Assembly: GCA_030655535.1 (NCBI GenBank)
Contig: JAURVK010000068.1
Location: 7,316-71,315 of the forward strand
Length of the DNA: 64,000 bases
Direction: 5' to 3'
DNA from: Methylobacter sp.
GTDB lineage: Bacteria > Pseudomonadota > Gammaproteobacteria > Methylococcales > Methylomonadaceae
The notes beneath the pieces were generated by a model, which was given only the letters and a program-made list of their open reading frames with translations, had not been told where the DNA came from and did no database searches. Each line of letters opens with the position of its first letter. The first letter of the stretch is position 1. Shown one piece after another: positions 9,580-30,124 of the stretch. A program made the position numbers and the translations under genes.

Positions 9580-10194
9580 TTACTCAGCAATAAAGTGATT
9601 CTGATAATCTTCCATAGCTCGTCTAATCACCTCATGCGCTTCTTCCCGTCCGTAAACATTGGTTATTTCGCAGGAGTTCTTTTCGCTCGGCAGGTGTTTA
9701 TAGGTCAGGAAGTAATGTTTCAGGCGATTGATATAAGACTCCGGGCAGTCTGATACGTCATTCCATTGCCGATAAAACTCGTCGCCTTTCATCACCGCAA
9801 TAATCTTGTCGTCGGCTTCTCCTCCATCCAGCAAACGGAAACCGCCGATCGGTATCGCTTGTAAAAGAATATCGCCATGCGTCACATTGCGCTCACTTAA
9901 AACGCAAATATCCAGCGGGTCTCCATCGCCTTTGATAACGGTTTTTCCCGATTTTATTGCGGCATATTCGGCAACTCTGCCTGCGCAATAAGTTTGCGGA
10001 ATAAATCCGTACAACGTAGGAACGGTATTGGAAAACTTTTGCGGTCGGTCGATTTTAAGATAGCCGGTTTCTTTATCGATTTCGTATTTGACGGTATCCG
10101 ACGGGACGATTTCGATGAAAGCCGTAACGATGTCCGGCGCATGGTCGCCCGGACTGATGCCGTGCCAAGGGTGTGCTTTGTATTGTATATTCAT
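9580..10194 (-). CDS. ppa: Inorganic pyrophosphatase (family I)
   Basis: HPWHG, KYEIDK, YGFIPQT, DGDPLD and DDKII motifs. Confidence 0.93.
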   Translation of the reverse strand: MNIQYKAHPWHGISPGDHAPDIVTAFIEIVPSDTVKYEIDKETGYLKIDRPQKFSNTVPTLYGFIPQTYCAGRVAEYAAIKSGKTVIKGDGDPLDICVLSERNVTHGDILLQAIPIGGFRLLDGGEADDKIIAVMKGDEFYRQWNDVSDCPESYINRLKHYFLTYKHLPSEKNSCEITNVYGREEAHEVIRRAMEDYQNHFIAE

Positions 10195-10271
10195 AGATGA
10201 TAGTTAATTTTCCTTAGAAAATAGCCGGTTATTAAAAAATGGAATATAGATACTGCAGATTAAACCGATAA

Positions 10272-10299
10272 AAAAGGCAAAAGGCAAAAGGCAAAAGGC
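10272..10299. repeat. Heptamer tandem repeat (AAAAGGC)x4
   Basis: Read directly; related heptamer runs at 52376-52409 and 55869-55887. Confidence 0.85.
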
Positions 10300-10354
10300 A
10301 AAAAAACCTTGCGCCTACAAATCCGTATCGCCTATTTTTGGCATCCGTGTCTCA

Positions 10355-11188
10355 TTAAACGGAAATCGGCGCCTTGATAGGGTCGTGCGTCTGGTAATCG
10401 ACGATTTCAAAATCTTCATAGTGATAATCGAATATCGATTCCGGCCTGCGTTTTATTTTTAATGTCGGCAATGCGTAAGGCTTGCGGGTCAATTGCAAGT
10501 TAGCCTGCTGCTGATGATTCAGGTAAAGATGCACGTCGCCGCCGGTCCAGACAAAATCACCCACTGCCAAATCGCACTGCTGAGCGACCATATGCGTCAA
10601 TAAGGCATAACTGGCTATATTGAACGGCAAACCCAAAAACGTGTCGCAGCTGCGCTGATAGAGCTGACAAGACAGTTTGCCGTCGGCCACATAGAACTGG
10701 AAAAACGCATGACAGGGAGATAGAGCCATTTTGCCCAACGCCACATTTTGCTGGGGGCTGATGCTTTCATCCGGCAAATCCGCGACATTCCAGGCGGAAA
10801 CGATAATCCGGCGGCTGTTCGGCGTGTTTTTAAGTTGTTCGATGACTTGCTGAATCTGGTCGATATGCCGACCGTCGGGTGTGGGCCATGAGCGCCACTG
10901 ATGGCCGTACACCGGGCCTAAATCGCCGTTTTTATCCGCCCATTCGTTCCAGATACTGACGTTATGCTCATGCAGATACGCCAAATTAGTCTCTCCTTTC
11001 AAAAACCACAGCAATTCATATATTATTGATTTTAAATGTGTTTTCTTGGTTGTAACCAGTGGAAAACCTTCCTCCAGCGGAAAGCGCATCTGATGACCGA
11101 AAATGGACAAGGTGCCGCTGCCGGTTCTGTCGCCTTTCAGGCTGCCTTCGGTGATAATTTTATCGAGTAATTCTAAATATTGCTTCAT
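10355..11188 (-). CDS. thyA: Thymidylate synthase
   Basis: DRTG, ELLWFL, PCH, YQRSCD and PFNIASY motifs. Confidence 0.97.
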
Positions 11189-11265
11189 GCGATTTTTTCA
11201 TGACTATATGGTTTTTTAACAAAATTTACGGGCATTGTCAGTTATATCGACATTAATTATTCACT

Positions 11266-11439
11266 TACAGCGTTTTCAAATTCAGTTAATTACTAAAATA
11301 TCTACGATGCTTATTGAAACTATAGCGTGCGGGAATGCAAGCTTTGCTTGCCAGCGCAGGCGAAGCCTGCACTCCAGCGACCATGATAACGACATAGCCT
11401 TTTAATGGTTAGTAACTAATTTAAATTGAAAACGCTGTA
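11266..11439. mobile_element. 174-bp MITE with terminal inverted repeats, containing a REP-like doublet
   Basis: TACAGCGTTTTCAAATT...TTAATTACTAA versus TTAGTAACTAA...AATTGAAAACGCTGTA, with TA at both ends; internal palindrome pair at 11329-11378. Confidence 0.75.
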
Positions 11440-11440
11440 T

Positions 11441-11710
11441 GTCGACTCATTTTCGGCTTCACGGAAGGCTTCCAGCCTAACTTCCATACCGCCTGACGCA
11501 GCCAACGTATTAACTATAGGGTTTACCTGTGTAAGCATGGCTTGCTTTTTTTAGCGTGCTGATGACGGTGTTTTTGTTAATCCCCAACACTCGTCCCGTA
11601 TCACGAATGCCGCCGCCATTGATCGCCATCTCCACCACTTGGCGTTTGACTCCAGGAACATAGGCCTTACCGTGTTCTCTATAGCGGATAAAGCCGTCGT
11701 TTTGAAACAC
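11441..11710 (-). pseudogene. IS1-family transposase remnant (InsA-like C-terminus and frameshift region)
   Basis: VVEMAINGGGIRDTGRVLGINKNTVISTLKK is a typical IS1 HTH, followed by an A7 slippery run; truncated next to the MITE. Confidence 0.8.
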
Positions 11711-11719
11711 GCTTAATAG

Positions 11720-12511
11720 TTACTTATTTGGAATACTTGTCTTATGCGCAAAATAAAATAACCCAGCGCCAATCAAGATCATCGGCGTTGACAGAATCTG
11801 CCCCATAGTCACCCAGTCCAAAGCCAAATAACCTAATTGCGCGTCCGGCACTCTGAAAAACTCGACAAAAAACCGGAAGCATCCGTAAAAAAACAGCGCC
11901 ATGCCGGTCGTGGCCATAACCGGCCTGGGTTTGCTGGAATACACCCAGAGGATGACAAACAAGACGAAGCCTTCTAAAAAGGCTTCGTACAATTGCGAAG
12001 GGTGACGGGCTAACGGGCCGCCGGTAGGAAAGACCATGGCCCAGGGTACGTCGGTGGGCCTGCCCCATAATTCGGAATTGATAAAGTTGCCGATACGACC
12101 GGCGCCCAAACCTATAGGCGCCAGCGGCGCGATAATGTCGGTTAGTTGCATCATCGTGCATTGCTGTTTTTTTGCAAACAACCACATGGCGATAAAAACA
12201 CCCAACATGCCGCCATGAAAAGACATGCCGCCTTGCCATATTTTAAACAGGACAAGCGGATTGCTCAGAAATTCACCAAAATTATAAAACAGGATGTAGC
12301 CGATTCTGCCGCCCAGGATCACGCCGAGTGCACCGTAAGTCACCAGATCTTCTATGGCTTCAGGTTTAATCGGCGACCAGGACTGTTCAGCGCGTTTTTG
12401 CCCTATAAACCAGACGGCGGCAAAACCGATCAGGTACATCAATCCGTACCAGTGAATTTTTATCGGGCCTAAGCTAAAGGCAATAGGGTCGATTTGTGGG
12501 AAATTCAGCAT
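11720..12511 (-). CDS. lgt: Prolipoprotein diacylglyceryl transferase
   Basis: HWYGLMY, GGRIGY, GGMSFHGG, GRIGNFIN and HPSQLYE motifs. Confidence 0.97.
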   Translation of the reverse strand: MLNFPQIDPIAFSLGPIKIHWYGLMYLIGFAAVWFIGQKRAEQSWSPIKPEAIEDLVTYGALGVILGGRIGYILFYNFGEFLSNPLVLFKIWQGGMSFHGGMLGVFIAMWLFAKKQQCTMMQLTDIIAPLAPIGLGAGRIGNFINSELWGRPTDVPWAMVFPTGGPLARHPSQLYEAFLEGFVLFVILWVYSSKPRPVMATTGMALFFYGCFRFFVEFFRVPDAQLGYLALDWVTMGQILSTPMILIGAGLFYFAHKTSIPNK

Positions 12512-12514
12512 AAT

Positions 12515-12649
12515 TGTCGTGTGAAATAATTAGTGAAAAAATGGGTATTGATAAATAACACTTTTTTCATTATTTATGTCAACCAATGCGTGCCATTTTG
12601 ACACAAATAATGAAAAATTTCGGAATTTTCGACACTAATAGTGAAAAAA
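12515..12649 (+). repeat. Transposon end with spaced putative TnsB sites
   Basis: Sites at 12523-12541, 12562-12580 (inverted), 12600-12618 and 12631-12649. Confidence 0.75.
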
Positions 12650-13112
12650 TCCATCTCCTAACCTGCTATTTAAATAGAGAAGTCTCTGATTTAAGTTTAA
12701 CTGATTTGGATTGTTGAGGCTTGATGAGTTTTGACCATTTAGAGTAGATCTATCGGGAACTGGCTAGCTAACTAGTTAAATTTTAAATCCTTATTCCCAT
12801 CTAAAATTAAATTCGGTATGTGTAACGGTTTGCGTTTGAAGATCGCCGTGCTCGCATTTAATGCAGTTTCCTGCTCAGAATAACTGCAAATGAAAACAGG
12901 TCATCAAACAATCATTTGTTGGATTGCCTATAGCAGTTCTTGGTTGCGGGGTTGAAGCCAAACAGTAAGAAAACGTCCGGTATAATTCGATTTCAACCCC
13001 TCGAAAAGGTAAAATTAGACCAATGCCTCTTTCTGAGCATCGGGTAGGCATGTGGATTTGTTTAACGAATACTAAGCGCACCTAACTATGTAAATAACCA
13101 TCCAGGATATTC

Positions 13113-13823
13113 ATGACCCGTCGATTCGAAAAAAAGCGCCCCCCATTCATTACGCTGCCTCGGCACAAACGTAGCGATGAGGTCATCCGCCTCAAAGGAC
13201 GAATGAAGCGCGACTCTGACGAATATGGCGGAATGTTCACAAGCCACTTGGTTCTCGATGAACCTGGCCGGCCGGACTTGTACAGTCAGTGGTTTGATTT
13301 CTATTTCCCAGGCCTGGATCGGTTTACGATCTGGAATGCGGCTTTCGTGACTGCACGCAAGGCATTTTGGGATGCGGCCCATGAACTTGCTTACCAACGC
13401 ACGGCTGCAATGTTGACGCCGGAAGAGCATTCGGCTGAGTCCAATATGGAATTCGAGCCCGCGGAATTTTCCAATACCGGCAAAGTCTTGAGCTACCGAC
13501 TGATTGAGCGGAAGAAGATGCAATACGAGAAATTTGGCGGACTGACTTTCTTCGAGCAATGGGAAAAGCTGGAATCCGAGATCGTCCGCGAAGCCCCGCC
13601 GACCATCCATGAGTTTTTCCGTCTTGATCGTAGTTATGCTTATGGTGTCGGACTGTACATCGTTCTCGATGTAAACGTAATCGACCGCACAGCGATTGAA
13701 CAAGCCATTACCAAATTTCGAGCAATAGGTGAAACCGATTGGCAGGCCGTCAATCCAGTGCCGAGTGAACGACTCCCCGTTGTGAGCGAAAAAGAAGCCT
13801 TGGCGGCAATTAATTGCAAATGA
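13113..13823 (+). CDS. Hypothetical protein (transposon cargo)
   Basis: 236-aa ORF with plausible composition, co-oriented upstream of hsdR; no family recognised. Confidence 0.65.
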   Translation: MTRRFEKKRPPFITLPRHKRSDEVIRLKGRMKRDSDEYGGMFTSHLVLDEPGRPDLYSQWFDFYFPGLDRFTIWNAAFVTARKAFWDAAHELAYQRTAAMLTPEEHSAESNMEFEPAEFSNTGKVLSYRLIERKKMQYEKFGGLTFFEQWEKLESEIVREAPPTIHEFFRLDRSYAYGVGLYIVLDVNVIDRTAIEQAITKFRAIGETDWQAVNPVPSERLPVVSEKEALAAINCK

Positions 13824-13952
13824 AAATCAGAAAATAGACGACAATAAGGGGTTTGTACTGTAGAGATTTCGGGGGTGAACTTCGGAATGAGAGCCGCCAC
13901 GCGCTTATAGCAGGGTACTTGACCAACCAAGAGTCATGCTGAAGAAGGAATT

Positions 13953-16406
13953 ATGAGCAAAAAAACCCTGAGCGAATCCGATATTTGCGCTAAGTACATC
14001 ACGCCAGCCGTCATTCAGGCCGGATGGAATGATGCACTTCAGATTCGTCGCGAAGTATTTTTCACTAAAGGGCGCATCATCGTCCGTGGCAAGCTGGTTA
14101 CGCGGGGCAAGGCCAAGCGGGCTGATTACGTCCTGTATTACCAGCACTTTCCGATTGCCCTGATCGAGGCCAAGGACAACAACTGCGCCGTGGGCGACGG
14201 GATGCAGCAGGCGCTGGATTACGCCGTCACGCTGGATATTCCCTTTGTATTCGCATCCAACGGCGACGGCTTCGTGTTTCACGATCGCACCGGCCTGAGC
14301 GCACAAATCGAAACCACGCTGGTCTTAAACGCATTTCCAAACCCAGCCACGTTGTGGGCGCAATACTGCACCTGGAAGGGGCTGGCCCCCGAGCAGGAGA
14401 AGATTGTCCTGCAACCTTATTACGACGACGGCAGCGGCAAGGAACCGCGCTACTACCAGCGCAATGCCATCAACGCCACTGTCGAAGCCATCTCCAAGGG
14501 TCAAAACCGCATTTTGCTGGTCATGGCAACCGGCACCGGCAAGACCTACACTGCTTTTCAGATTATCTGGCGGCTTTGGAAGGCGGGGCAGAAGAAACGC
14601 ATCCTGTTTTTGGCTGACCGCAACGTGCTGATCGACCAGACCATGGTCAACGACTTCCGCCCCTTCGGCGCGGCCATGGCCAAACTCAGCACCGGAGCCA
14701 AAACCATCGAACGGGCTGACGGCAGCGTGGAGGTCATTACGACAGCCATCGATAATAAAGTCCGCCGCATCGACACCGCCTATGAAATCTATCTCGGACT
14801 GTATCAAGCGATCACCGGCCCGGAAGAGCGACAAAAGCTGTTCCGCGAATTTTCGCCCGGCTTCTTCGATCTCATCGTCATCGACGAGTGTCATCGGGGC
14901 AGCGCCGCCGAAGATTCCGCTTGGCGGGAAATCCTCGAATACTTTTCCGATGCCACGCAAATCGGCCTCACCGCCACGCCCAAAGAAACCGAGTATGTTT
15001 CCAATATCCATTACTTCGGCGAACCGGTTTACACCTACTCGCTCAAGCAGGGCATTCGTGACGGCTTCCTTGCCCCCTACAAAGTCATCAAGGTGCATCT
15101 CGATGTGGATGTAGAAGGCTACCGTCCTCAGTCAGGGGAAACCGACCAGTATGGTCACGAAATCGAAGACCGCATCTACAACCAAAAGGATTTTGACCGG
15201 AACCTTGTGATCGACGAACGCACCCAGCGCGTCGCTAAATGGGTGTCAGACTATCTCAAACAAAGTGGCGACCGGTTCCAGAAGACCATTGTCTTCTGCG
15301 TGGATACCGAACACGCCGCCCGGATGCGACTAGCCTTCATCAATGAGAACCAGGACCTCGTCCAACAGAACGCCCGCTACGTCATGCGTATTACCGGCAA
15401 CGATAAGGAGGGGACAGATCAGATCGGTAACTTTATTGACCCGGAAGCCAAATACCCGGTCATCGTCACCACCTCACGCCTGCTTTCCACCGGGGTTGAT
15501 GCGCAAACCTGCCGGTTGATTGTGCTCGATCGTGAAATCGGCTCCATGACCGAGTTCAAGCAGATTGTCGGACGCGGCACCCGTGTTCACGAAGACACCA
15601 AGAAGTATTACTTCACCCTGATTGACTTCCGCAAAGCCACCCATCACTTTGCCGATCCTGAATTCGACGGCGAACCGGTGCAGATTTACGAACCGGGTGA
15701 AAATGATCCGGTTACTCCGCCGGATAATGTGCCGCCGTCAGGAGACGAAGAGCCCATTCCGACTCATCCCGGCGAAGATGAAACCGTGGTGGACGAGCCG
15801 CCCGACATTACCTTACCGCCTGGGACGAACGAGCCTCCCGCCAAGTACTACGTCAAAGGCAAGCCTGTCTCTGTTCTCACCGAGCGGGTGGAATATCTCG
15901 ACGAAAACGGCAAGCTGGTGACTGAATCCCTGCGCGACTATAGCCGCAAGGCTATCCGCCAGCACTTTGCCAGCCTTGATCAATTCCTGCGCCGCTGGAA
16001 ATCAACCGAGCGCAAAGAAGCCATTATTGAAGAATTGGCGGAAGAGGGCTTGCTTCTGGAGCCGTTATTGGAAGAAGTCGGCAAAGACCTCGATCCCTTC
16101 GATCTGATTTGCCACATTGCCTTCGATCAGCCGCCCTTGACCCGGCGCGAACGTGTCAACAATGTCAAAAAACGCGATGTTTTCAACAAATATGGCTTGC
16201 AAGCCCGTGCAGTGCTTGAAGCTTTGCTCGCCAAATATCAGGACGAAGGCATCGTCACCGGTCTCGACAACGTCAAGATTCTGGAAATCCCCCCATTCAA
16301 CACGATGGGAACCCCCATTCAGCTTATCAAGGAATTCGGCACCCGAGCCAGCTTTGAAAATGCTGTCCATGAACTGCAAGCCGCCCTCTATCAGGACATT
16401 GCATGA
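13953..16406 (+). CDS. hsdR: Type I restriction enzyme R subunit (EcoAI/EcoEI-like)
   Basis: ADYVL...IEAK nuclease motif, [19 protein letters not shown] and QIVGRGTR motifs; EcoEI-like C-terminus. Confidence 0.95.
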
Positions 16407-16440
16407 CTGAAGCGTTTCACACCAGGAAAGAAGAACAGGT

Positions 16441-17249
16441 CTCACGCCAAGGCGCAAAGACGCCAAGATACAAATTCAACATTTTTACTTTGGCTTTTCT
16501 TGGCTCCTTGGCGCCTTGGCGTGAGCCACCAAATATAATCAGGAGATTGCATGATTGAAGAATTTCACGCCAAGGCGCCAAGACGCCAAGAGCCCAGCGA
16601 GGAAGTTGACCGACTTGCAACCCTAGTCGTCGATGCCTGCGTAAAAATTCACAAGTCGCTGGGTCCCGGACTACTTGAAAGCGTGTATGAACGGATTCTC
16701 GCTCACGAGCTCGAACAAAGGGGGTGCCAAGTAGCCCGGCAGGTTTCCATACCGATCACCTATTGCGGAATGACTTTTGAGGAAGGCTTCCGTGCTGATT
16801 TGCTTGTCAATAAGTTGTTGATCATTGAACTCAAGTCAATAGAAAAACTTCTTCCAGTACACAAGAAGCAGGTGTTAACCTACCTGCGGCTAACCGGCCT
16901 ACATCTCGGTCTGTTAATCAATTTTGGTGAAGAACTAATGAAGACCGGCATTCACCGCATCATTAACAACCGGATGACATGAAAGGGTGACTCACGCCAA
17001 GGCGCAAAGACGCCAAGAAAAGCGTTTTCCTTTGTGTCTTGGCGGCTTGGCGTGAGGCTTTCTTTTTGGCTTCGGAGCGCAACCGGCAATCCATGCCAGC
17101 GACGAATCAATTTTTTTACTTTATCTTCTCTTGGTGCCTTGGCGTGAGTCACCCAGTTATGTCAGCAAGAAACACCGTTAAATCCATTTCAGCAATGAAT
17201 CGATTTTTTTATTTTAACTTTTCTTGGCGCCTTGGCGCCTTGGCGTGAG
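16441..17249. repeat. Cluster of 8-bp-periodic palindrome arms around the GxxExxY gene
   Basis: Left arms YTCACGCCAAGGCGCMAAGACGCCAAG at 16441, 16564 and 16991. Right arms (...CTTGGCGTGAG) end at 16525, 17056, 17148 and 17249. Confidence 0.92.
16551..16982 (+). CDS. GxxExxY protein (PD-(D/E)xK nuclease-like)
   Basis: LGPGLLESVY signature, RADLLV...IIELKS and GLLINFG; SD AGGAG upstream. Confidence 0.93.
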   Translation: MIEEFHAKAPRRQEPSEEVDRLATLVVDACVKIHKSLGPGLLESVYERILAHELEQRGCQVARQVSIPITYCGMTFEEGFRADLLVNKLLIIELKSIEKLLPVHKKQVLTYLRLTGLHLGLLINFGEELMKTGIHRIINNRMT

Positions 17250-17259
17250 TCGTCCAGTT

Positions 17260-18717
17260 ATGTCAGCCAGAAATACCGTTAAATCCATTCAAGACATCAT
17301 GCGGCAGGATGTCGGCGTCGATGGCGACGCTCAGCGTCTTTCCCAGCTGTGCTGGATGTTCTTTCTGAAAATCATCGACGATCAGGATCAGCAATTGGAG
17401 GTGATGCAGGACAACTACCGTTCGCCGATTCCAGAGGCCTTGCAGTGGCGGACGTGGGCAGCCGACCCGGAAGGTATCACTGGCGATTCACTGCTAACCT
17501 TCATCAACACCGAGCTATTTCCAAAGCTCAAGGAACTGCCAACAACAGGCCAGAACGCCAATCGCAGCCGCGTGGTGCGCAGCGTGTTTGAAGATGCCTA
17601 CAACTATATGAAATCCGGCCAACTGCTGCGCCAGGTCATCAACAAAATCAGCGGCGTGGACTTCAACGACTTATCGGAACGCAAGCACTTCGGCGACATT
17701 TACGAACAGCTGCTCAACGACCTGCAAAGTGCGGGCAATGCGGGTGAGTATTACACCCCCCGTGCTGTCACTGCGTTCATGGTGGATCGTATCGACCCCA
17801 AGCCGGGAGAAATCCTGTTCGACCCCTCCTGTGGCACGGGCGGCTTTCTCACCTGTTCCATTCGCCACATGCGCGACCGCTATGTCAAAAAGGTCGAAGA
17901 CGAACAGGCTATGCAGGCCAGCCTGCGCGCCGTGGAGAAGAAACAGCTTCCGCACATGCTCTGCGTTACCAATATGCTGCTGCACGGTATTGAAGACCCC
18001 AGCTTCGTGCGCCATGACAACACCTTGGCACGGCCTTATATCAGCTATGGCCAGGCCGACCGGGTAGACATCATTCTTACCAATCCGCCGTTTGGCGGAA
18101 AGGAAGAAGACGGCATTGATTCCAACTTTCCCCCGCACTTCCGCACCAAGGAAACTGCCGACCTTTTTCTGGCATTGTTCATCCGCCTATTAAAGCCCGG
18201 TGGTCGCGCCGCCATCGTGTTGCCCGACGGCTCATTGTTTGGCGAAGGTGTCAAAACCCGCCTCAAGGAACACCTGCTGGAGGAGTGCAACCTGCACACC
18301 ATCGTGCGCCTGCCCAACAGCGTGTTCAAACCCTACGCAAGCATCGGCACCAACCTGCTGTTCTTCGAGAAGGGCGAGCCGACCAAAGACATCTGGTTCT
18401 ACGAACACCGTGTGCCGGAAGGCCAGAAGGCCTATTCGATGACCAGACCCATTCGCATCGAGCATCTGCAAGGTTGCGTGGACTGGTGGGGCGGGCCGGA
18501 ACGCCGAGACCGGCAGCAAACCGAAGTCGCTTGGAAAGTTAACTTAGATGAGATCAAAGCTCGTAACTACAACCTCGACTTCAAGAATCCGCATACCGTG
18601 GCCGATGACCATGGTGACCCGCAAGAGCTGCTGGCCAAGTTGGAAAAAGACGAACAGAAAGCCGCCAGTCTGCGCGATCAGCTCAAGTCTATTCTGGCTA
18701 AGGCGTTGCTGCGATGA
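17260..18717 (+). CDS. hsdM: Type I R-M methyltransferase subunit
   Basis: GEYYTPR, DPSCGTGGFL and NPPF motifs; start at MSARNTVKSIQDIMRQD (17260), not 17224. Confidence 0.95.
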   Translation: MSARNTVKSIQDIMRQDVGVDGDAQRLSQLCWMFFLKIIDDQDQQLEVMQDNYRSPIPEALQWRTWAADPEGITGDSLLTFINTELFPKLKELPTTGQNANRSRVVRSVFEDAYNYMKSGQLLRQVINKISGVDFNDLSERKHFGDIYEQLLNDLQSAGNAGEYYTPRAVTAFMVDRIDPKPGEILFDPSCGTGGFLTCSIRHMRDRYVKKVEDEQAMQASLRAVEKKQLPHMLCVTNMLLHGIEDPSFVRHDNTLARPYISYGQADRVDIILTNPPFGGKEEDGIDSNFPPHFRTKETADLFLALFIRLLKPGGRAAIVLPDGSLFGEGVKTRLKEHLLEECNLHTIVRLPNSVFKPYASIGTNLLFFEKGEPTKDIWFYEHRVPEGQKAYSMTRPIRIEHLQGCVDWWGGPERRDRQQTEVAWKVNLDEIKARNYNLDFKNPHTVADDHGDPQELLAKLEKDEQKAASLRDQLKSILAKALLR

Positions 18718-20510
18718 ACGCCGAACTCCTGCTGCAACACTTCGAACGCCTCAGTGAAGCGCCGGATGCCATCCCGCGTTTGCGGCGCTTTATTCTGGAT
18801 TTGGCGGTGCGCGGCAAATTGGTTGAACAAGACCCTAACGATGAACCGGCAATGGAGTTGTTGAAGCGGATTCAGGCGGAAAAGGACGGGCTGGGACTCA
18901 CGCCAAGGCGCAAAGGCGCCAAGAAAAGCGAAAAAGCCGATCAAGAAACGCTTGGCGACTTGGCGGCTTGGCGTGAGATGCCTTTTAGAATTCCTAGGGC
19001 TTGGGCATGGATCAGTTTGGGAGAGCTGGGTCTAACGCAGACGGGCACAACACCCTCAAAGAATCTCGGGGATAATTTCGGAAAGCACATTCCGTTCATA
19101 AAACCGGGCGATCTTTATCCTAACGGTGTCGATTACTCTAACGAAGGTCTCAGTGAGGATGGCCTGAAAGATTCCGGGAGAATTGCATCAGCAGGGTCAC
19201 TCTTGATGGTGTGTATTGGAACTATCGGGAAATGCCAGCTCGTGAATCGAGACTGCTCGTTTAATCAGCAAATCAACGCTCTTACACCATACGATAGCTT
19301 GGCCTCAAACTATTTATTGGCAGCATGTCTTTCTGACTTTTTCCAGAAATCTGCGTGGACAGCATCAGCGCGGACAACTATCGCCATCTTGAATAAAGGC
19401 AAGTGGGAGCGACTAAGACTACCTATCCCACCCCTCGCCGAACAACACCGCATCGTCGCCAAGGTGGATGAATTGATGGCGCTGTGTGACCAGTTGCAGG
19501 CGGCGCAAACTGAGCGCGAACAAAGCCGCGACCAACTGGTGGCGGCCAGCTTTCACCAGTTGCAGGATTCTAATGGTTTCACGCCAAGGCGCCAAGACGC
19601 CAAGAGAGACGAAAAGGCAGAACAGGAAAATCTTGGCGCCTTAGCGCCTTGGCGTGAGTCTGTTTTTCTTCAAAACCTTCCGCGTCTGACCACCCGCCCG
19701 GCACACATCAAACAACTGCGCAAGACCATCCTTAACCTCGCTGTGCGTGGCAAACTCGTCCCTCAAGACCCCAACGACGAACCAGCGGCGGAATTACTCA
19801 AGCGAATACAGGCAGAGAAAGCGCAGTTGGTGAAGGAGGGGAAGATCAAGAAGGACAAACCGCTGCCACAGATTTCAGAAGTTGAGAAGCTGTTTGTACT
19901 GCCGAGGGGATGGGAGTGGGTGCGCATGCAGGCAGCTTTTGATGTGCGCGATGGAACCCATGACACTCCGAAATACGTCGAGGATGACGGAATCCCACTA
20001 ATAACCAGCCGAAATTTTGTAAACGGAAAAATATCGTTCGATGACGCTAAACTTATTTCGCTGAGTGACCACAATTCCATTAAGAAGCGTTCAGGTGTAG
20101 ATAGAGGCGACATTCTCTATTCCATGATCGGAGGCAATATCGGAAATCAGGTTTTCGTTGATACTGACCGTGAATTCAGTATCAAGAACGTAGCCTTGTT
20201 CAAGTACTACACGAAGAAAGAACCGCTGCCGGAGTACCTGAACCTGTTTCTTAAGACAGTGACAATTGGCTTACAAAACGAGGCCGTAGGCGGTGCTCAG
20301 CCCTTTGTCTCTTTGTCATTGCTCAGAAATATTCCTTTTCCGATCCCACCCATAACCGAGCAACATCGCATCGTCGCCAAAGTCGATGAACTAATGGCGC
20401 TATGCGACCAACTGGAAGCCCAGCTCATCACTACAGAGACCGACAGCCGCAGCCTGCTTGAAGCCGTGCTGCATGAAGCTTTGGCTCCGGCGCCAGAGGA
20501 AGCCACCTGA
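18714..20510 (+). CDS. hsdS: Type I R-M specificity subunit with two in-frame palindrome insertions
   Basis: Two LAVRGKLVxQDPNDEPA and two PIPPxxEQHRIVAKVDELMALCDQL conserved regions around two TRDs. Confidence 0.95.
   Translation: MNAELLLQHFERLSEAPDAIPRLRRFILDLAVRGKLVEQDPNDEPAMELLKRIQAEKDGLGLTPRRKGAKKSEKADQETLGDLAAWREMPFRIPRAWAWISLGELGLTQTGTTPSKNLGDNFGKHIPFIKPGDLYPNGVDYSNEGLSEDGLKDSGRIASAGSLLMVCIGTIGKCQLVNRDCSFNQQINALTPYDSLASNYLLAACLSDFFQKSAWTASARTTIAILNKGKWERLRLPIPPLAEQHRIVAKVDELMALCDQLQAAQTEREQSRDQLVAASFHQLQDSNGFTPRRQDAKRDEKAEQENLGALAPWRESVFLQNLPRLTTRPAHIKQLRKTILNLAVRGKLVPQDPNDEPAAELLKRIQAEKAQLVKEGKIKKDKPLPQISEVEKLFVLPRGWEWVRMQAAFDVRDGTHDTPKYVEDDGIPLITSRNFVNGKISFDDAKLISLSDHNSIKKRSGVDRGDILYSMIGGNIGNQVFVDTDREFSIKNVALFKYYTKKEPLPEYLNLFLKTVTIGLQNEAVGGAQPFVSLSLLRNIPFPIPPITEQHRIVAKVDELMALCDQLEAQLITTETDSRSLLEAVLHEALAPAPEEAT
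18897..18977. repeat. 81-nt palindrome in frame in hsdS (copy 1)
   Basis: 27-nt arm, 27-nt loop, 27-nt arm; encodes LTPRRKGAKKSEKADQETLGDLAAWRE. Confidence 0.92.
19578..19658. repeat. 81-nt palindrome in frame in hsdS (copy 2)
   Basis: 27/27/27 layout; encodes FTPRRQDAKRDEKAEQENLGALAPWRE. Confidence 0.92.
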
Positions 20511-20755
20511 CCGGCATTGCCGAGGGTCTAATATCGTTGGGTAAAACCCATACCGAAAACTCCTCTGATTTTCGCTTTTTGTACCCAGCAAAACCGGTGA
20601 TTCCGGCGGGGCGGCTTTGCCATACCGTAAACATTTATTTTTATGAGGCATAATCTTGATCTGATTGTTTGCATCAAAAGCAATGCGGGGTATTCAAGAC
20701 CGATCCTGTGGAAGTCTAAATTTCACCTCATATCAGGAATATTCAATATTTTACC

Positions 20756-20986
20756 TCAATGGACATTGCCTGGTTGTTGATCAACCACTACTTTTCGATC
20801 GGTAAAGATGGTTTCAATTGTGGCAGGCGATACCATGTTGCCATTTTTTCGGCTGACGATTTCCAGGTTAATCTCGAGCTGTGGATCGCTCATATACTGG
20901 TATAAAGTCTCCAGAGGTATCTCAATCTTCTTTACCGGATTCCTGCCTTCGAGAATTCGCAAGATAATAGCCAAAGGTTCAAACAA
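20756..20986 (-). pseudogene. Short hypothetical ORF or gene fragment
   Basis: 76-aa ORF with TTG start in the AT-richer right part of the element; no family recognised. Confidence 0.3.
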
Positions 20987-21244
20987 TTCAAATGCACTCT
21001 ATTGGCCGATAGCTTCTAATCGCGTCAATCGGCAATTACAAAGCATCCATTCCATACATCATGTAGCCATTCTAAATACAGGCATATCAAATCTTTCATA
21101 GCTCAACCTTACTTAATGAGTAAAGCCCATCAAAAAGCCGGTGCTACACAGCCTGTATCCAAACAACTAAGCAAACCATAAGGCTCGCCCAGTTTTCTCA
21201 ATCCTGCTTAAATTTGGGTGAACTCCAAAATAATGCCTGCCGGA

Positions 21245-21314
21245 TTTTTTCACTATCTGTGTCACTACTTTTTCACTAACTTGTCATTTTTTTCATTAAT
21301 AGTGTCATTCGACA
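21245..21314 (-). repeat. Transposon end with three closely spaced putative TnsB sites
   Basis: TTTTTTCACTATCTGTGTC (21245-21263), CTTTTTCACTAACTTGTC (21268-21285) and TTTTTTCATTAATAGTGTC (21288-21306), then terminal ATTCGACA. Confidence 0.8.
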
Positions 21315-21317
21315 AGA

Positions 21318-23795
<2,478 letters not shown>

Positions 23796-23809
23796 CTAAT
23801 GGTTGCGAA

Positions 23810-23825
23810 TGTTCCACATGGAACA
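23810..23825. promoter_or_regulatory. parS site
   Basis: TGTTCCACATGGAACA, one mismatch to the palindrome TGTTCCACGTGGAACA. Confidence 0.8.
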
Positions 23826-24902
23826 TTACACGGATTTTATGGTGCCATGTTCCACGTGGAACATTTTGTAATTTTTAATTTGACTTAAATCGCCAAAATC
23901 ATTTTTTTCGGTTGCTGTAATAAATACCTGACAAGCCATTTCTGATAAATAGTTTAATAATTTAGCCCGGTTAATCACATCGAGTTCTGCTGCGAAATCA
24001 TCAATCAAAATACAGCCTGTTTGGCTCTGTTCATTGGCAAGCAATTGAACCTGTGCCAATTTCAAACTCATGACTAATAATTTTAATTGCCCGCGTGAAA
24101 CAAAATCCTTTGCCAAGCGGTTATTAACCAATAACTGAAAATCGCCACGATGAGGCCCGCTATGGGTAAATCCATAACGCAGGTCTTTATCCCGATCATC
24201 AATTAAAACCCGATTAAATTCCTTGGCAGTATCCCAACCGGACACAAGCTTCAGATCGATACCATCAAGGGTGAGAAATCTGCCGATAATTTCGATAAAA
24301 ACAGGTTTGAATTTTTCTAAATATTGCTGACGGAAACTATCCACTATTGTACCGTAATAAACGAGTTCTTTATCCCAAACATTAATTTGTTCAAGACGCT
24401 TTGTTTTTAACAGGGCATTGCGTTGAGATAAGGATTTTTTAAACTTACGCCAGGCAGGTAAAAAGTTTTGGTCATTATTGAAAACGCCCCAATCTAAAAA
24501 CTCTCTCCTTAGCTGTGAACCGGCATCAAGTAATTCGTAACTTTTTGGATGAATAAGTTGCAACGGCAATGCATAGGCTAAATCCGAGCGTTTTTGTTTC
24601 GATTGCTGATTGATATGGATTTCACTGTTTTTGCCATCAAGCTGTATGCCTAACTGTAACTGACTTCCATTTTCCTGCAAGGTTTGCGCTGAAACGACTA
24701 AGCGATCTTTGGTGAAATTGATAACGGACTTGATAGCTGAACAACGATAAGATTTAGCTCGTCCTAAAATAAAAATAGCTTCAAGTAGAGCGCTTTTTCC
24801 ACTGGCATTTTCTCCAACAACCAAATTGATTGTTGGAGAGGGGATTATCGATTCTTTTTGGATATTTCTGACTGAGTAAATATCCAGTTTCAACAAACTC
24901 AT
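23826..24902 (-). CDS. recF: DNA replication/repair protein RecF
   Basis: GENASGKS Walker A, GPHRGD, SRGQLK and LIDD motifs; dnaN-recF-gyrB synteny. Confidence 0.96.
   Translation of the reverse strand: MSLLKLDIYSVRNIQKESIIPSPTINLVVGENASGKSALLEAIFILGRAKSYRCSAIKSVINFTKDRLVVSAQTLQENGSQLQLGIQLDGKNSEIHINQQSKQKRSDLAYALPLQLIHPKSYELLDAGSQLRREFLDWGVFNNDQNFLPAWRKFKKSLSQRNALLKTKRLEQINVWDKELVYYGTIVDSFRQQYLEKFKPVFIEIIGRFLTLDGIDLKLVSGWDTAKEFNRVLIDDRDKDLRYGFTHSGPHRGDFQLLVNNRLAKDFVSRGQLKLLVMSLKLAQVQLLANEQSQTGCILIDDFAAELDVINRAKLLNYLSEMACQVFITATEKNDFGDLSQIKNYKMFHVEHGTIKSV
23848..23863. promoter_or_regulatory. parS site within the recF 3' end
   Basis: Perfect palindrome TGTTCCACGTGGAACA (Pseudomonas-type parS). 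Confidence 0.88.
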
Positions 24903-24913
24903 TACTGCAATTT

Positions 24914-26014
24914 TTACAGTCTCATCGGCATAACAATAAATTTATACCCGCAATCACCCGGTTCATCTATAAAACAACTGCTGGCATTACTCGCAATGGT
25001 CAAAACCGCCAGCTCGGAATCCAGATTTGAAACAGCATCCAATAAATACTGGGCATTAAAAGCGATTGTTAAGGGTTCGCCGATATATTCAATAATCAAT
25101 TCTTCCTCGGCTTCATCATGTTCCGGATTATGCGTACTGATTTTTAGCCTGTCAGGAGTAATATCGAAAGTCACTCCCTTGAATTTTTCATTCGACAAGA
25201 TGGCAACACGAGTCAATGCGTCTTTTAAAACTTGTTTTTGAATATGAATCTGATTGAAAAATTCTTGCTGAAAAACTTTACCGAAATCGGGATATTTTGA
25301 ATCGACCAATTTTGCCGAGAAAATCAGGTTCTTTATGAAAACCCGAATATTGTTGCTGGAAAATTCAACTTTCAGTTCGGCTTCAGGATCATCGAGCAAT
25401 CGACTCAATTCAAGCACACCTTTTCTGGGAAGAATAATTCTGGCTTCAAAACCGGTAGCCTGATCCAGATTATCTTCGTAAATAGACAAGCGATGTCCAT
25501 CAGAGGCAACCAGTTTAAATTTACTGTTGGATACATGAAACAACAAGCCGTTCAGGTAATAACGAACATCCTGATTAGCCATGCAGAAGACCGTCTTATC
25601 AAGCGCTTTTTTAAATTTACCGGCAGTGATGAATAAATGATTCTCTAACTCGGATTCGGCAAATTCAGGATAATTATCGGCGGGTAAACAACTCAGCGAA
25701 AAACGACTGCGACTTGAGGCTATTTTCACCTTATCGTCCTGCAACTCGAATTTGATTTCAGCTCCGCTAGGTAGCAGCCTGCAAATGTCCAGGAATTTTC
25801 TGGCCGGTACGGTAATCATTCCTGGCGTGGCCGTTGCGATATTGATTTTAGCAATAATCTGAATTTCCAGATCCGTACCCGTTAAAATCAGCTGGTCTTC
25901 CTTAATAACAATCAGTACATTGGAAAGAATAGGCATGGTTTGCCTCTTTTCTATTACGCTGACTATTTGCTGCAAAGGAATCAGGATTTCTTCTCTATTA
26001 ATAATAAATTTCAT
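24914..26014 (-). CDS. dnaN: DNA polymerase III beta clamp
   Basis: QDVRYYLNG, SDGHRL and terminal VMPMRL. Confidence 0.98.
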   Translation of the reverse strand: MKFIINREEILIPLQQIVSVIEKRQTMPILSNVLIVIKEDQLILTGTDLEIQIIAKINIATATPGMITVPARKFLDICRLLPSGAEIKFELQDDKVKIASSRSRFSLSCLPADNYPEFAESELENHLFITAGKFKKALDKTVFCMANQDVRYYLNGLLFHVSNSKFKLVASDGHRLSIYEDNLDQATGFEARIILPRKGVLELSRLLDDPEAELKVEFSSNNIRVFIKNLIFSAKLVDSKYPDFGKVFQQEFFNQIHIQKQVLKDALTRVAILSNEKFKGVTFDITPDRLKISTHNPEHDEAEEELIIEYIGEPLTIAFNAQYLLDAVSNLDSELAVLTIASNASSCFIDEPGDCGYKFIVMPMRL

Positions 26015-26201
26015 AAAAGAATATTTTTCTATTATTACTATTAGCTTAAAAGGAAACTGTGGAAAACAGCTTTTTATCCTTAAAAATCAATTAGCTATAT
26101 TGTTAAAAACAATGTGGTTAACGATGCATTTTAAAGTGTATGACTTGTGGTTAAATAAAGGTTGTTAGCAAAAATACATGTTATCCACAGCTTGCACCCG
26201 G
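26015..26201. promoter_or_regulatory. DnaA-box cluster with AT-rich tract (oriC candidate 1)
   Basis: TGTGGAAAA 26058, TGTGGTTAA 26113 and 26146, TTATCCACA 26181; TAT/TAC triplet run at 26030-26044. Confidence 0.7.
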
Positions 26202-27518
26202 TTAATGTGACAGGGTTCTCAACAGGTTGGAGTAATCTTCCGCAATTTTATTATCTGCTTCTTTTAACTCGGCAATCCGTTTACAGGCATTCATTACAGT
26301 AGTATGGTCACGACCGCCAAAAGCATCGCCAATTTCAGGAAAACTGTGCGATGTTAATTCTCTGGCTAAGCACATAGCCATTTGTCGCGGTCGGGTAATG
26401 GATTGTTTTCTGTTTTTAGAAGACAAATCGGCAACTCGAATTTTAAAATATTCGGCCACTGTTTTCTGAATATTGTCGATATTAACGAGTTTATCCTGCA
26501 AAGAAATTAAATCATGCAGCGCTTCCTTGGTAAAGTCGATGGTGATGTCACGTCCGGTAAACTGTGCGTTGGCAATGACTCGCCGCAAAGCGCCTTCCAG
26601 ATCTCGGACGTTGGAAGGAATCCGTTTGGCGATAAAAAAAGCCACATCCTGAGCTAATTCAATATTAACTAAAGCAGCTTTCTTCATTAAAATAGCGGCC
26701 CTGGTTTCCATATCGGGAGGCTCGATTAAAACAGGAAGTCCCCAACCAAACCGTGATTTTAAACGATCTTCAAGACCTATAATTTCCTTTGGATATTTGT
26801 CGCAGGTTAAGATGACTTGATGCTTTTTTTCCAGTAAGGTATTGAAAGTATGGAAAAACTCTTCTTGAGAGCGCTCCTTGCCGGCAAAAAATTGAATATC
26901 GTCGATTAACAGCACATCAACGCCACGATAAAATTCTTTAAATGCATTAATGGAATTTTGCTGTAATGCCCTAACCATATCCTGAACGAATTTTTCAGAG
27001 TGCAGATAAACGACAGTTGCCGAGGGATTTTTTTGTAAAACAGCATTGCCTATCGCATGCATCATATGGGTTTTACCCAAACCTGAACTGCCGTAAATAA
27101 GTAAAGGGTTATAAGCTTTACCGATATTTTCAGAAACCTGCATGGAAGCCGCCCTGGCCAACTGATTGGACTTACCCTCAACAAAATTGTCGAAGGTAAA
27201 TGCCTTATTGAGAAAGTTTGGACTGGTTTTTTGAGTACCGGCAGGCTTTGCTATTTTTGCAGCAGGTGTAACGGATGAATTTTTGGAACCAATTTCAAGA
27301 CTTAAATGTAATGTTCCATTGGTAAACTCATAAATCGTTTCTTCAATTTTTGCAAAATGATGCTCTTTAACCCAGTCCAGTACAAACCGGTTTGGGGCTA
27401 ATAATTTTATGTGTCCATCGCTTTCTATGGCCTGAAGGGGTCTTATCCATGTACTGAAGTCGGAACCTGAAATTTCATTTTCAAGTTTAGCAAGACAGTT
27501 GTTCCAAATTGAGCTCAT
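26202..27518 (-). CDS. dnaA: Chromosomal replication initiator DnaA
   Basis: [24 protein letters not shown] and GGRDHTTV motifs. Confidence 0.98.
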
Positions 27519-27601
27519 TGAAATAGTAAAAAAGTTGATTAGTGTAATGAAGTAATTTTGCGTTTTATCACTATACAGTAATAAAACATTGCTCTACAGA
27601 A

Positions 27602-27630
27602 TTGACAGGCCTAGCTGTTTATTTTATCAT
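27602..27630 (+). promoter_or_regulatory. Sigma70 promoter of rpmH
   Basis: TTGACA-17 nt-TATCAT. Confidence 0.7.
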
Positions 27631-27686
27631 CCGCTGTCTTTTTTATCTGTTTTTGTTAACATTCATCTGATCAGGCCTTAAATACA

Positions 27687-27821
27687 ATGAAAAGAACATA
27701 TCAACCTAGTAAAATTAAACGCGCAAGAACCCACGGTTTTCGTGCAAGAATGGCAACAGTCGGTGGCCGTAGAGTTATCAATGCTCGTAGAGCAAAAGGA
27801 CGCGCCCAGTTAACCGTTTAG
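27687..27821 (+). CDS. rpmH: 50S ribosomal protein L34
   Basis: Manual translation [44 protein letters not shown] (too short for the ORF track). Confidence 0.97.
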
Positions 27822-27832
27822 TTGATGGTTGT

Positions 27833-28201
27833 GTGGCTGAAGAAGTTTTTAGTTTCCCCCCGCAGTTACGGTTAAAAAAACCGGCTGAATATAAAAAGGT
27901 TTTTGCTAAGCCTGTAAAATCAAGCGACCAATATTTTACCCTGTTAGCTATACGGAATGATTTTGATCATCCGAGGCTGGGCTTGGCAATTGCTAAAAAA
28001 AATATAAGAAAGGCAGTACAAAGGAATGTGATTAAACGAACTGTCCGGGAAAACTTTAGAATAAAACAACATGGTTTAGGGAATATTGATATTGTTGTTT
28101 TGGCTCGTAGAGAAGCCGTGGATGCTCCATTGGATTTGTTAAGAAAATCCTTGGAAAGGCATTGGCTTAAATTGGTATCCCGATGCGATTCATGCTCATA
28201 G
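27833..28201 (+). CDS. rnpA: Ribonuclease P protein component
   Basis: RLGLAIAKK...AVQRNVIKR; synteny. Confidence 0.95.
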
Positions 28202-28416
28202 CGATTATAAGGTTCTACAGGTACTTTATTAGCCCTCTGCTTGGAAGCCGCTGTCGCTTCTATCCAAGTTGTTCAAGTTATTCTCTGGAAGCGCTTCAGC
28301 TCCATGGAGCCATTATCGGCTCCTATCTCACCCTCAAAAGATTATTAAGATGCCATCCGTTCCATGAAGGTGGCATTGATCCCGTTCCAGAAAAATTTGG
28401 TAATAAGAATGGATAA
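28183..28416 (+). CDS. yidD: Membrane protein insertion efficiency factor
   Basis: [10 protein letters not shown] and [14 protein letters not shown] motifs. Confidence 0.95.
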
Positions 28417-30124
28417 TATAAGATTTGTACTGATCGTTACTTTTGCAATGCTTGTTTTTATGCTGCAACAAGCTTGGCAACAGGATTATGGCCCGAAACC
28501 TGAAATTGCTGCTGTTGTAGATACCGTAGCGACCAATACCAAAGAAGATTTACCCTCTGCCGCAGGTGCTTCAGCCCACACAGAAACGGCAGATCAAGAT
28601 ATTACAGCCGTTCCATTGGCAACATTGTCATCTGCCAACATCATTACCGTTAAAACCGATGTGCTTGCCCTCGAAATTGATACCAAAGGAGGCACAATCC
28701 AAAATCTGGATTTAATAACCTACCCGGAAGAAAAAGCCAATAGTGTGGTAAATAGTATGCGCGCATTGATTGGTTTACCGGCCGCAGAAAAAAACACCGC
28801 CCCCGTACGTTTATTTAACAGCAACCAAGAAAAGTTATTTGTCGCTCAAAGTGGTTTAATTGCCGACAGTGGTTTTGCGACGGCGCCGAATCATCATACG
28901 GTATTTAAAAATGAACAAGAACATTATGAACTAAAACTTGGCGAGGATAGTTTAACGGTACCCTTAACATGGACCGATAATAATGGCCTGACCATTACCA
29001 AATTATTTACCTTTAAGCGCGGCAGTTACCGAATAACACTGGAACAAAAAGTTAAAAATGATTCTGAAAAGGATTGGTCCGGCAGACAATACAGCCAGCT
29101 ACTCAGAGTTCCTGATACCTCAAGCAGTGCCGGCGGAATGCTGACCGGCGGTATGAGAGCTTATGCCGGCGGCGTTATTTACACCGAAAAAGAAAAATAC
29201 CAAAAAATAAGCTTCGACGATATGGATGATGAAAATCTTGATGTTGCGACCACGGGTGGTTGGACAGCAATAATTCAGCATTATTTTGCCTCAGCATGGG
29301 TTCCGCCTGCGGATCAAGAAAACCACTTCTATACCAAAACGCTGAATGACGGACGTTATGTGATCGGAACTTATTCTCCATTAGTCACCGTTAACGCAAA
29401 TTCAAATGTTCAATTTACGGCTCAATTATTCGCAGGGCCTAAAATCCAGCCGATGATGGAAGAAACCGCGCACGGTCTTGAGCTTACCGTTGATTACAGT
29501 TTTTTAACCTTTATCGGCAAACCGATTTATTGGGTATTGAATCAGATTCATGATGCAGTCGGTAATTGGGGCGTAGCCATTATTGGCGTAACATTATGTA
29601 TTAAATTACTGTTTTTCCCTTTATCGCAAGCCAGTTATAAATCAATGGCTAAAATGCGTAAAATTCAGCCGCGTCTTAAAGAACTGCAAGAACGTTTTGC
29701 CGATGACAGACCGCGTTTCAATACCGAAATGATGGCCCTGTATAAAAAAGAAAAGGTTAATCCTTTGGGCGGCTGTCTACCTATTTTGGTACAGATTCCG
29801 GTGTTTATGTGTTTATATTGGGTATTGAGCGAAACCGTTGAGTTTCGTCAAGCGCCTTTCATGTTATGGATACAGGATTTATCAATACAGGATCCGTTTT
29901 ATGTATTGCCGGTTATCATGGGCATCACCATGAAAATTCAGCAGGGCTTAAATCCTGCACCAATTGATCCGATACAGGCTAAAGTCATGAAGATGTTCCC
30001 GATTGTCTTTACCATCTTCTTCCTGTTTTTTCCGGCCGGTTTGGTTTTATATTGGGTGGTCAACAATACCCTGTCTATTATTCAACAGTCGTATATCACC
30101 CGGCAAATAGCTAAAATGCCATAA
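28409..30124 (+). CDS. yidC: Membrane protein insertase YidC
   Basis: [16 protein letters not shown] and NPLGGCLP motifs; start at MDNIRF (28409). Confidence 0.96.

Follow-up and report, generated by a model that had tools for sequence, protein, structure and literature searches.

The hsdS gene of this Methylobacter sp. operon contains two in-frame hairpins of a repeat family that likewise flanks a neighbouring gene of the GxxExxY nuclease family. We consider it likely, with a probability of roughly 0.78, that the hairpins are selfish passengers, each tolerated in a predicted flexible linker of the specificity subunit, and that the first target-recognition domain (TRD1) is exchanged at its ordinary borders. 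This reading builds on the identity of the repeats, their clustering at the nuclease gene, the cassette alleles of the operon, the borders of the TRD1 swaps, and a second palindrome found at the same hsdS sites. Taken by itself, the passenger status of the hsdS hairpins is highly probable; that the nuclease is the agent by which the repeat spreads is a slightly better than even proposition.

The window (the whole 64,000-nt stretch of DNA that was analysed) contains an EcoAI-type type I operon in the order hsdR, GxxExxY gene, hsdM and hsdS (Table 1), and the named homologues of its proteins belong for the most part to Methylococcales. Only one hsdS of an EcoAI-type operon and a single copy of the GxxExxY gene were detected in the genome (G000). 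The GxxExxY protein scores above the curated cut-offs of both profiles that match it, with 142 bits against 35 for TIGR04256 and 139 against 22 for PF13366; no solved structural relative of it was found in the PDB.

Table 1. Features of the restriction operon and its hairpins, in positions of the window.
Feature	Position	Strand	Basis or remark
hsdR, EcoAI/FtnUII-type restriction subunit	13953..16406	+	NF046051, 1170 bits
hsdR end and arm start	16390..16424	+	near copy at 16538-16572, 30/35 alike
Intergenic hairpin A	16441..16525		arms 16441-16467 and 16499-16525; upstream of GxxExxY; folding z −8.8
GxxExxY protein, PD-(D/E)XK family, 143 aa	16551..16982	+	TIGR04256, PF13366
Intergenic hairpin B, downstream of GxxExxY	16991..17056	.	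arm comparison, folding
Two extra right arms, first ~30 nt of hsdM after each	17130..17289	+	17130-17188 vs 17231-17289, 54/59 alike
hsdM	17260..18717	+	ATG at 17260; listed ORF opens at TTG 17224 in last arm
hsdS, 598 aa, two Methylase_S stretches	18714..20510	+	Pfam
Hairpin 1	18897..18977	.	in frame, residues 62-88, occupies pre-TRD1 linker position
TRD1, unit exchanged in relatives, ~441-444 nt	18987..19427	+	joints 18986-19428, 18986-19431
Central conserved helix, residues ~239-288	19428..19577	+	tracks backbone rather than TRD1
Hairpin 2	19578..19658	.	in frame, residues 289-315, loop behind central helix
Native hsdS direct repeat	19422-19501 and 20340-20419	+	80 nt, 80% alike, 918 nt apart

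As the initial annotation had described them, the hsdS hairpins are each 81 nt long with a 27+27+27 layout, and each opens with the first base of a codon in the uninterrupted 598-aa frame. They flank TRD1 as direct copies with a spacing of 681 nt, are identical to each other in 66/81 positions, and have loops as similar as claimed (18/27 identical). Each arm is built of three bases and three 8-nt units, 24 of the 27 arm positions are complementary in each hairpin, and the DNA folds with z = −8.4 (hairpin 1) and −7.9 (hairpin 2), values equalled by 0/200 shuffles. Hairpin 1 occupies the place of a basic linker seen in the second repeat and in hairpin-free alleles (29 aa vs 20 aa), also as proposed, and hairpin 2 represents a net gain of 18 aa relative to the hairpin-free allele L201; the two hsdS sites are non-equivalent. 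The pair does flank TRD1, but the description of it as bracketing that domain is incomplete, as it also encloses the 147-150 nt of the central conserved helix. The multiple-of-3 lengths and spacing are found because an intact hsdS frame demands them; among 56 family hairpins from other genomes, length modulo 3 is split 22/17/17.

No repeat indicative of a target-site duplication is present at the flanks of either hsdS hairpin, and host sequence is replaced relative to L201, the DNA of which is only ~80% alike. A clean empty site close in sequence, of the kind that would fix the insertion chemistry, was not found among the compared loci. We dropped the possibility that the loops derive from host linker trapped between two inserted arms, since the two loops share homology although their sites do not.

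The two copies in hsdS are real, and they do not stand alone, with 8 further arm copies at 16441-17249 around the GxxExxY gene. Allowing up to 6 mismatches, the 2.76-Mb assembly (88% complete) contains 10 copies of the arm, or 11 with a shorter pattern; all 10 fall within 16441-19658, i.e. 3.2 kb, 8 of them surrounding the GxxExxY gene between hsdR and hsdM, and none was found in unrelated genes of this genome. The arms of hairpin 1 and of hairpin B, behind the GxxExxY gene, are alike in 35/36 and 19/19 letters. Operon-local clusters of arms are also seen elsewhere, with 8/8 matches in 3.1 kb in G149 and 5/5 in 2.5 kb in G121. The family as a whole was found at 121 loci from many phyla, and we estimate ~390 stretches. 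Six long-frame candidates among the 56 hairpins yielded one clear case in an unrelated host gene, an in-frame family hairpin in a DNA polymerase III alpha-type gene, within its helix-hairpin-helix region (L038:436-3801, Thiodictyon record).

A survey of GxxExxY genes in the order (30 loci including our own, one of them unscored) revealed a strong hairpin within ~300 nt of 19/29 scored genes vs 0/55 control windows, the latter being mostly coding and not a matched control; 10/29 had no strong hairpin. Conversely, a GxxExxY match was found near 6/121 arm loci (4/80 with flanks up to 3 kb, 2/41 with short flanks). The arm sequence varies with the lineage of the GxxExxY protein. Judged from sequence, the partnership between GxxExxY and the hairpins thus appears to be loose. 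The link that the initial annotation had drawn between them stands insofar as the gene is framed by the repeat family, but not for the protein as catalyst of a TRD1 switch.

Comparison of related operons revealed an allelic series (L194, L195, L152 and L137 are the same sequences as P0009, P0008, P0002 and P0026, and were counted once). At one end, L201, from the same genus, has no arms and an hsdR-hsdM gap of 3 nt, with HsdR 91% and HsdM 93% identical to ours; contigs of two other runs also join hsdR directly to hsdM, on short sides. L194 carries the full hairpin-gene-hairpin cassette and an hsdS with hairpin 2 only. In L195 and L161 the hsdR-hsdM gap holds a hairpin but no gene, and hsdS hairpins are present; L196 has identical hairpins on either side of the GxxExxY gene, and its hairpin 2, 69 nt long, belongs to another arm type. 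Relatives have lost the GxxExxY gene from between direct copies of the hairpin (L196 vs L195; joint 16514-17138), and therefore arm-to-arm deletion does happen in the operon.

Host flanks are duplicated beside the arms in the window, namely the hsdR end and the hsdM start. The AGGAG and ATG of the GxxExxY gene are supplied by the near copy of the hsdR 3' end at 16538-16572, and the N-terminus of the protein translates a lone left arm (16564-16590). A DNA pattern for the junction of hairpin 2 and hsdS retrieved 12 metagenome loci, six with hsdS (two near-duplicate sets); the other six were rejected as chance matches with no arms. L245 (G324:C188) has ~75 nt of central hsdS copied behind the hsdS stop, together with a hairpin whose loop is a different one and 9 nt of the right flank. 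We also noted that the inverted repeat in the window extends past the arms (16972-17022 with 17129-17164 and 17218-17268), the end of the GxxExxY gene pairing with the start of hsdM.

A mechanism can be proposed in which a hairpin-GxxExxY-hairpin cassette would enter the hsdR-hsdM gap, and the nuclease would recognise its own arms, probably when these are extruded as a hairpin or single-stranded, and cut them. Repair from nearby arms would then copy, convert, duplicate or delete arms within a few kb, and might sometimes carry 30-75 nt of host flank along. Copies landing in hsdS would survive only when in frame and in a permissive loop; the survivors would be inherited with the backbone, and TRDs would be reassorted between strains by recombination in native conserved regions.

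It is possible, if rather unlikely, that the nuclease is itself a passenger, so that GxxExxY and DUF559 (the nuclease gene of the second palindrome, below) would be captured cargo and the hairpins would be spread by host processes such as template switching, slippage and recombination, or by an unlinked transposase. Such an origin would account for the many arm loci, the majority, that have no nuclease gene nearby, for a genome with 57 arm matches genome-wide and only a distant GxxExxY homologue (G186), and for the flank duplications, which fit replication slips. It sits less well with the way in which arm sequence tracks nuclease lineage, with two unrelated nuclease families each having its own palindrome in the same operon, and with the confinement of arms to the operon in G000, G149 and G121.

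The initial annotation had offered tolerated insertion into flexible linkers as its second reading, and this one is supported. An AlphaFold model (16 sequences, mean pLDDT 76) has pLDDT <50 at residues 65-87 and 288-317, matching both hairpin peptides; it contains three other low-confidence segments. Related peptides also recur at the linkers of related HsdS. Among the best 120 of 5475 HsdS matches, picked by residues 1-57 alone and called at the peptide level, 9 have a related peptide before TRD1 (one of these was recognised by eye), 5 have one in the centre and 6 have one ahead of TRD2 (some of them single-arm); the pre-TRD1 and central sites are both filled in 4 of these 120, and P0011 has all three linker sites filled. 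One peptide variant is found in the first linker of P0054 and in the third linker of P0049. A third repeat-like peptide was noted in P0027, P0036, P0038, P0002 and P0090, where it splits hairpin 1, lies ahead of the start of hsdS or occupies the central loop.

The same HsdS sites have received another element. In four genomes of the same genus, an unrelated C-rich/G-rich palindrome lies in frame in hsdS, before TRD1 in L004 and L007 (2/4 loci) and centrally in L003, L007 and L011 (3/4), and these genomes have a DUF559 gene between hsdM and hsdS (Pfam was run on 3/4 genes). HsdS linkers act as a sink for palindromes linked to nucleases, of at least two unrelated families, and ten more central-loop peptides resemble other palindromes at the peptide level. 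The DUF559 palindrome is also scattered outside the operon in three of the four genomes. In L202-L205 (G026, G036, G009, G002) it occupies 4-8 places in each operon, among them the stretch behind hsdR, the tail of hsdM and in-frame positions in hsdS, and L203 and L205 contain tandem decayed units of it. The operon of the window also marks insert-tolerant sites in HsdS.

One observation could count against the passenger reading. A hairpin-peptide profile run against 1.84 billion proteins retrieved 23 matches, of which 9 were HsdS or pieces of HsdS, a share partly due to how the query was constructed, and the others mostly short frames over repeats; this richness in HsdS could also mean targeting or benefit.

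The borders of TRD1 exchange were read from related alleles. The hairpin-peptide searches returned 16 HsdS (6/12 and 15/21 candidates), all of which have hairpin 2, with hairpin 1 in 8 and the native linker in 7, and one being truncated. According to the initial annotation TRD1 might be exchanged between the hairpins; instead, the swaps in relatives end at the native border of TRD and conserved region, 147-150 nt before hairpin 2. Both swap joints listed in Table 1 come from single contigs (runs X6 and X5, sides 48 and 27), and in 9/10 loci, two pairs of which are near-duplicates, DNA likeness resumes at 19419-19437. P0001 and P0004 have TRD1s that are 94% alike, yet differ at 9/45 positions of the helix before hairpin 2, and P0004 and P0006 show 0/45 helix differences with TRD1s only 16% alike; the unit between the hairpins therefore did not move as one. 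On the left, only 9 nt separate the swap border from hairpin 1, but this border does not discriminate because it is also the ordinary TRD border.

TRDs of hairpin-bearing alleles are shared with alleles that lack hairpins. The TRD1 families of the former recur at 70-83% in hairpin-free HsdS; the TRD1 of the window is 78% like that of P0114, which has no hairpin 2, and its TRD2 is 97% like the TRD2 of P0079, an allele without either hairpin. The nine two-hairpin alleles carry TRD1s of 7 families and TRD2s, which no hairpins bracket, of 8 (assigned partly by eye). In a quick-method tree (136 columns, 78/128 branches open), which provides a hint only, hairpin alleles are scattered among hairpin-free ones. 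The native hsdS repeat offers homology as long as that of the hairpin pair, and is present without hairpins. In the alleles compared, TRD1 was swapped at ordinary borders rather than between the hairpins.

The hairpins might still act at a distance, if the nuclease cut at hairpin 1 or 2 and thereby raised the rate of ordinary TRD exchange with crossovers in native conserved regions. The proximity of the left border to hairpin 1 would agree with this, as would P0013-P0016, in which three TRD1s and two TRD2s occur in combination with a crossover in the central region that holds hairpin 2; however, these sequences come from 2-3 kb contigs and may reflect strain mixture, assembly joins or true shuffling. 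Hairpin-free alleles draw on the same TRD pool, L195 and L161 retain hsdS hairpins without a GxxExxY gene in the operon, and TRD1 diversity is not in excess of that of TRD2, all of which make such a hot spot improbable.

We regard it as highly improbable that the hairpins are retained because they serve the hsdS message or its protein, for example in pausing, mRNA processing or the spacing of recognition sites. Hairpin 2 stays at 81 nt with related loops from Methylococcales to Thiodictyon, and has perfect arms, in different letters, in L161 and L137; this might be longer persistence than a neutral insert would show, and to that extent counts against the passenger reading as well. Arm-to-arm correction can yield arm symmetry without function. 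Covariation of the arms over 9 copies was no better than in shuffles (2 two-sided pairs, a number reached in 213/500 shuffles), hairpin 1 is decayed in L195 (folding z −1.5), no Rfam family reached threshold for the hairpins, and among the best 120 of 5475 HsdS, 112 by a strict pattern or ~104 by a wider one are peptide-free at all three sites.

Deletion of TRD1 between the hairpins, which the in-frame spacing would permit, left no trace in the proteins and contigs compared. The junction is absent from 162 proteins, though its 371-aa product fell inside the searched length range; short HsdS that might be taken for junction products (P0010, P0012 and ten of <480 aa) are truncated instead. Among contigs, no 681-nt deletion and no rearranged or circular form was seen, the contig of the likely source run being intact at a depth of ~10. 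None of 15 listed of 32 contig joints lay between the hairpins (a second listing showed 11 joints). Two joints, 18925-19636 with 39 foreign letters and 18928-19579, were rejected as deletions, having 29-nt sides in one contig each and fitting other repeat copies.

The least credible reading is the original one, in which a TRD1 cassette is exchanged, deleted or excised between the hairpins by GxxExxY as an invertase-free switch of specificity: the direct orientation, mutual identity and in-frame spacing of the hairpins, the 7 TRD1 families and the arm-to-arm loss of the GxxExxY gene all speak for it, but against it stand the right swap border, the helix that does not travel with TRD1, the 8 families of the unbracketed TRD2, the missing junction, the intact source contig and a genome with no second TRD donor. 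A tempting false lead is thereby removed.

Among known systems, the hairpins are closest in manner to RPEs and other intragenic MITEs, which the relevant passages of PMC10969869 describe as palindromes in frame in coding genes with an apparently fold-compatible translated peptide. Like RPEs, the hsdS hairpins are palindromic, in frame and translated as a conserved peptide at predicted fold-compatible sites. They differ in length (81 nt vs ~150) and in their occurrence in many phyla, which set them apart, in arms made of three 8-nt units and clustered around a PD-(D/E)XK nuclease gene, and in replacing the host linker instead of inserting cleanly. As in MITEs, terminal inverted repeats are present (the 27-nt arms); unlike in MITEs, target-site duplication is absent at the hsdS hairpins. 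The gene that lies between the arms is GxxExxY, and no transposase partner was seen in the operon.

REP/REPIN elements are short palindromes that cluster around one small gene and track its lineage, that gene being RAYT, an HUH transposase. The arms described here likewise cluster at one small gene and follow its lineage; however, the framed gene encodes a PD-(D/E)XK member (TIGR04256/PF13366) rather than an HUH transposase, and copies are also found inside coding sequence. The nuclease family table of PMC3424549 supplies the family assignment of both small nucleases, listing PDDEXK_3 as of function unknown, and its passages on PDDEXK_3 and Vsr/DUF559 contain no mention of flanking palindromes. 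Neither the GxxExxY repeats nor the DUF559 repeats were found described in the literature searched, from which most subscription papers are missing.

The exchange of TRDs itself resembles DoMo, in which, as set out in the portion of PMC3077401 on this process, TRDs of type I S genes are replaced by recombination at conserved flanks in an x-TRD1-y-x-TRD2-y layout. Here, too, repeated conserved flanks surround both TRDs, and TRDs are common to positions 1 and 2 (P0006 TRD2 and P0092 TRD1, 91%; P0008 TRD1 and P0047 TRD2, 86%). In contrast to DoMo, the flanks bear foreign hairpins, which ride along and do not serve as crossover repeats on the right side. The pneumococcal tvr (SpnIV) locus is an excision-reintegration shufflon with direct repeats, circles and changed specificity, in which several hsdS sequences are served by a dedicated recombinase, according to the sections of PMC6265443 that describe it. 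Our locus differs in its single hsdS and in the lack of any rearranged form in the contigs; one hairpin-bearing hsdS per genome was seen in each of 5 other genomes. No linked site-specific recombinase was found in the ORF lists for 10000-30000, five ORFs of which were profile-scanned; the other ORFs around the operon are what we take to be housekeeping genes. By the features compared, the hsdS hairpins work in an RPE-like way, yet they belong neither to RPEs proper nor to classical MITEs, RAYT systems or hsdS shufflons.

If each nuclease does spread the repeat that belongs to it, two large families of unknown function would gain a testable role, and RPE-like protein insertions a candidate enzyme. 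The allelic series of the operon (empty, gene-less, full, and with one or two hsdS hairpins) is ready for testing nuclease-driven spread. A broader idea, which we hold to be decidedly doubtful, is that small PD-(D/E)XK nucleases (GxxExxY, DUF559), each with the palindrome that belongs to it, make up a class of transposase-free mobile repeats that write hairpins into permissive DNA nearby; hairpins lodged in HsdS linkers would then be cut by the nuclease and, as hot spots, accelerate the exchange of TRDs; if true, a selfish repeat would tune the pace at which restriction specificity changes.

The surroundings of the operon yielded three minor observations. A 236-aa ORF (13113-13823) upstream of hsdR gave no Pfam or NCBIfam match. 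The operon is part of a restriction island (12512-21317) located between lgt and gyrB, beside the dnaA-dnaN-recF-gyrB cluster, these genes being recognised from their translations. A 76-aa ORF on the minus strand (20756-20986) resembles the tail of a pyrophosphohydrolase-type gene.
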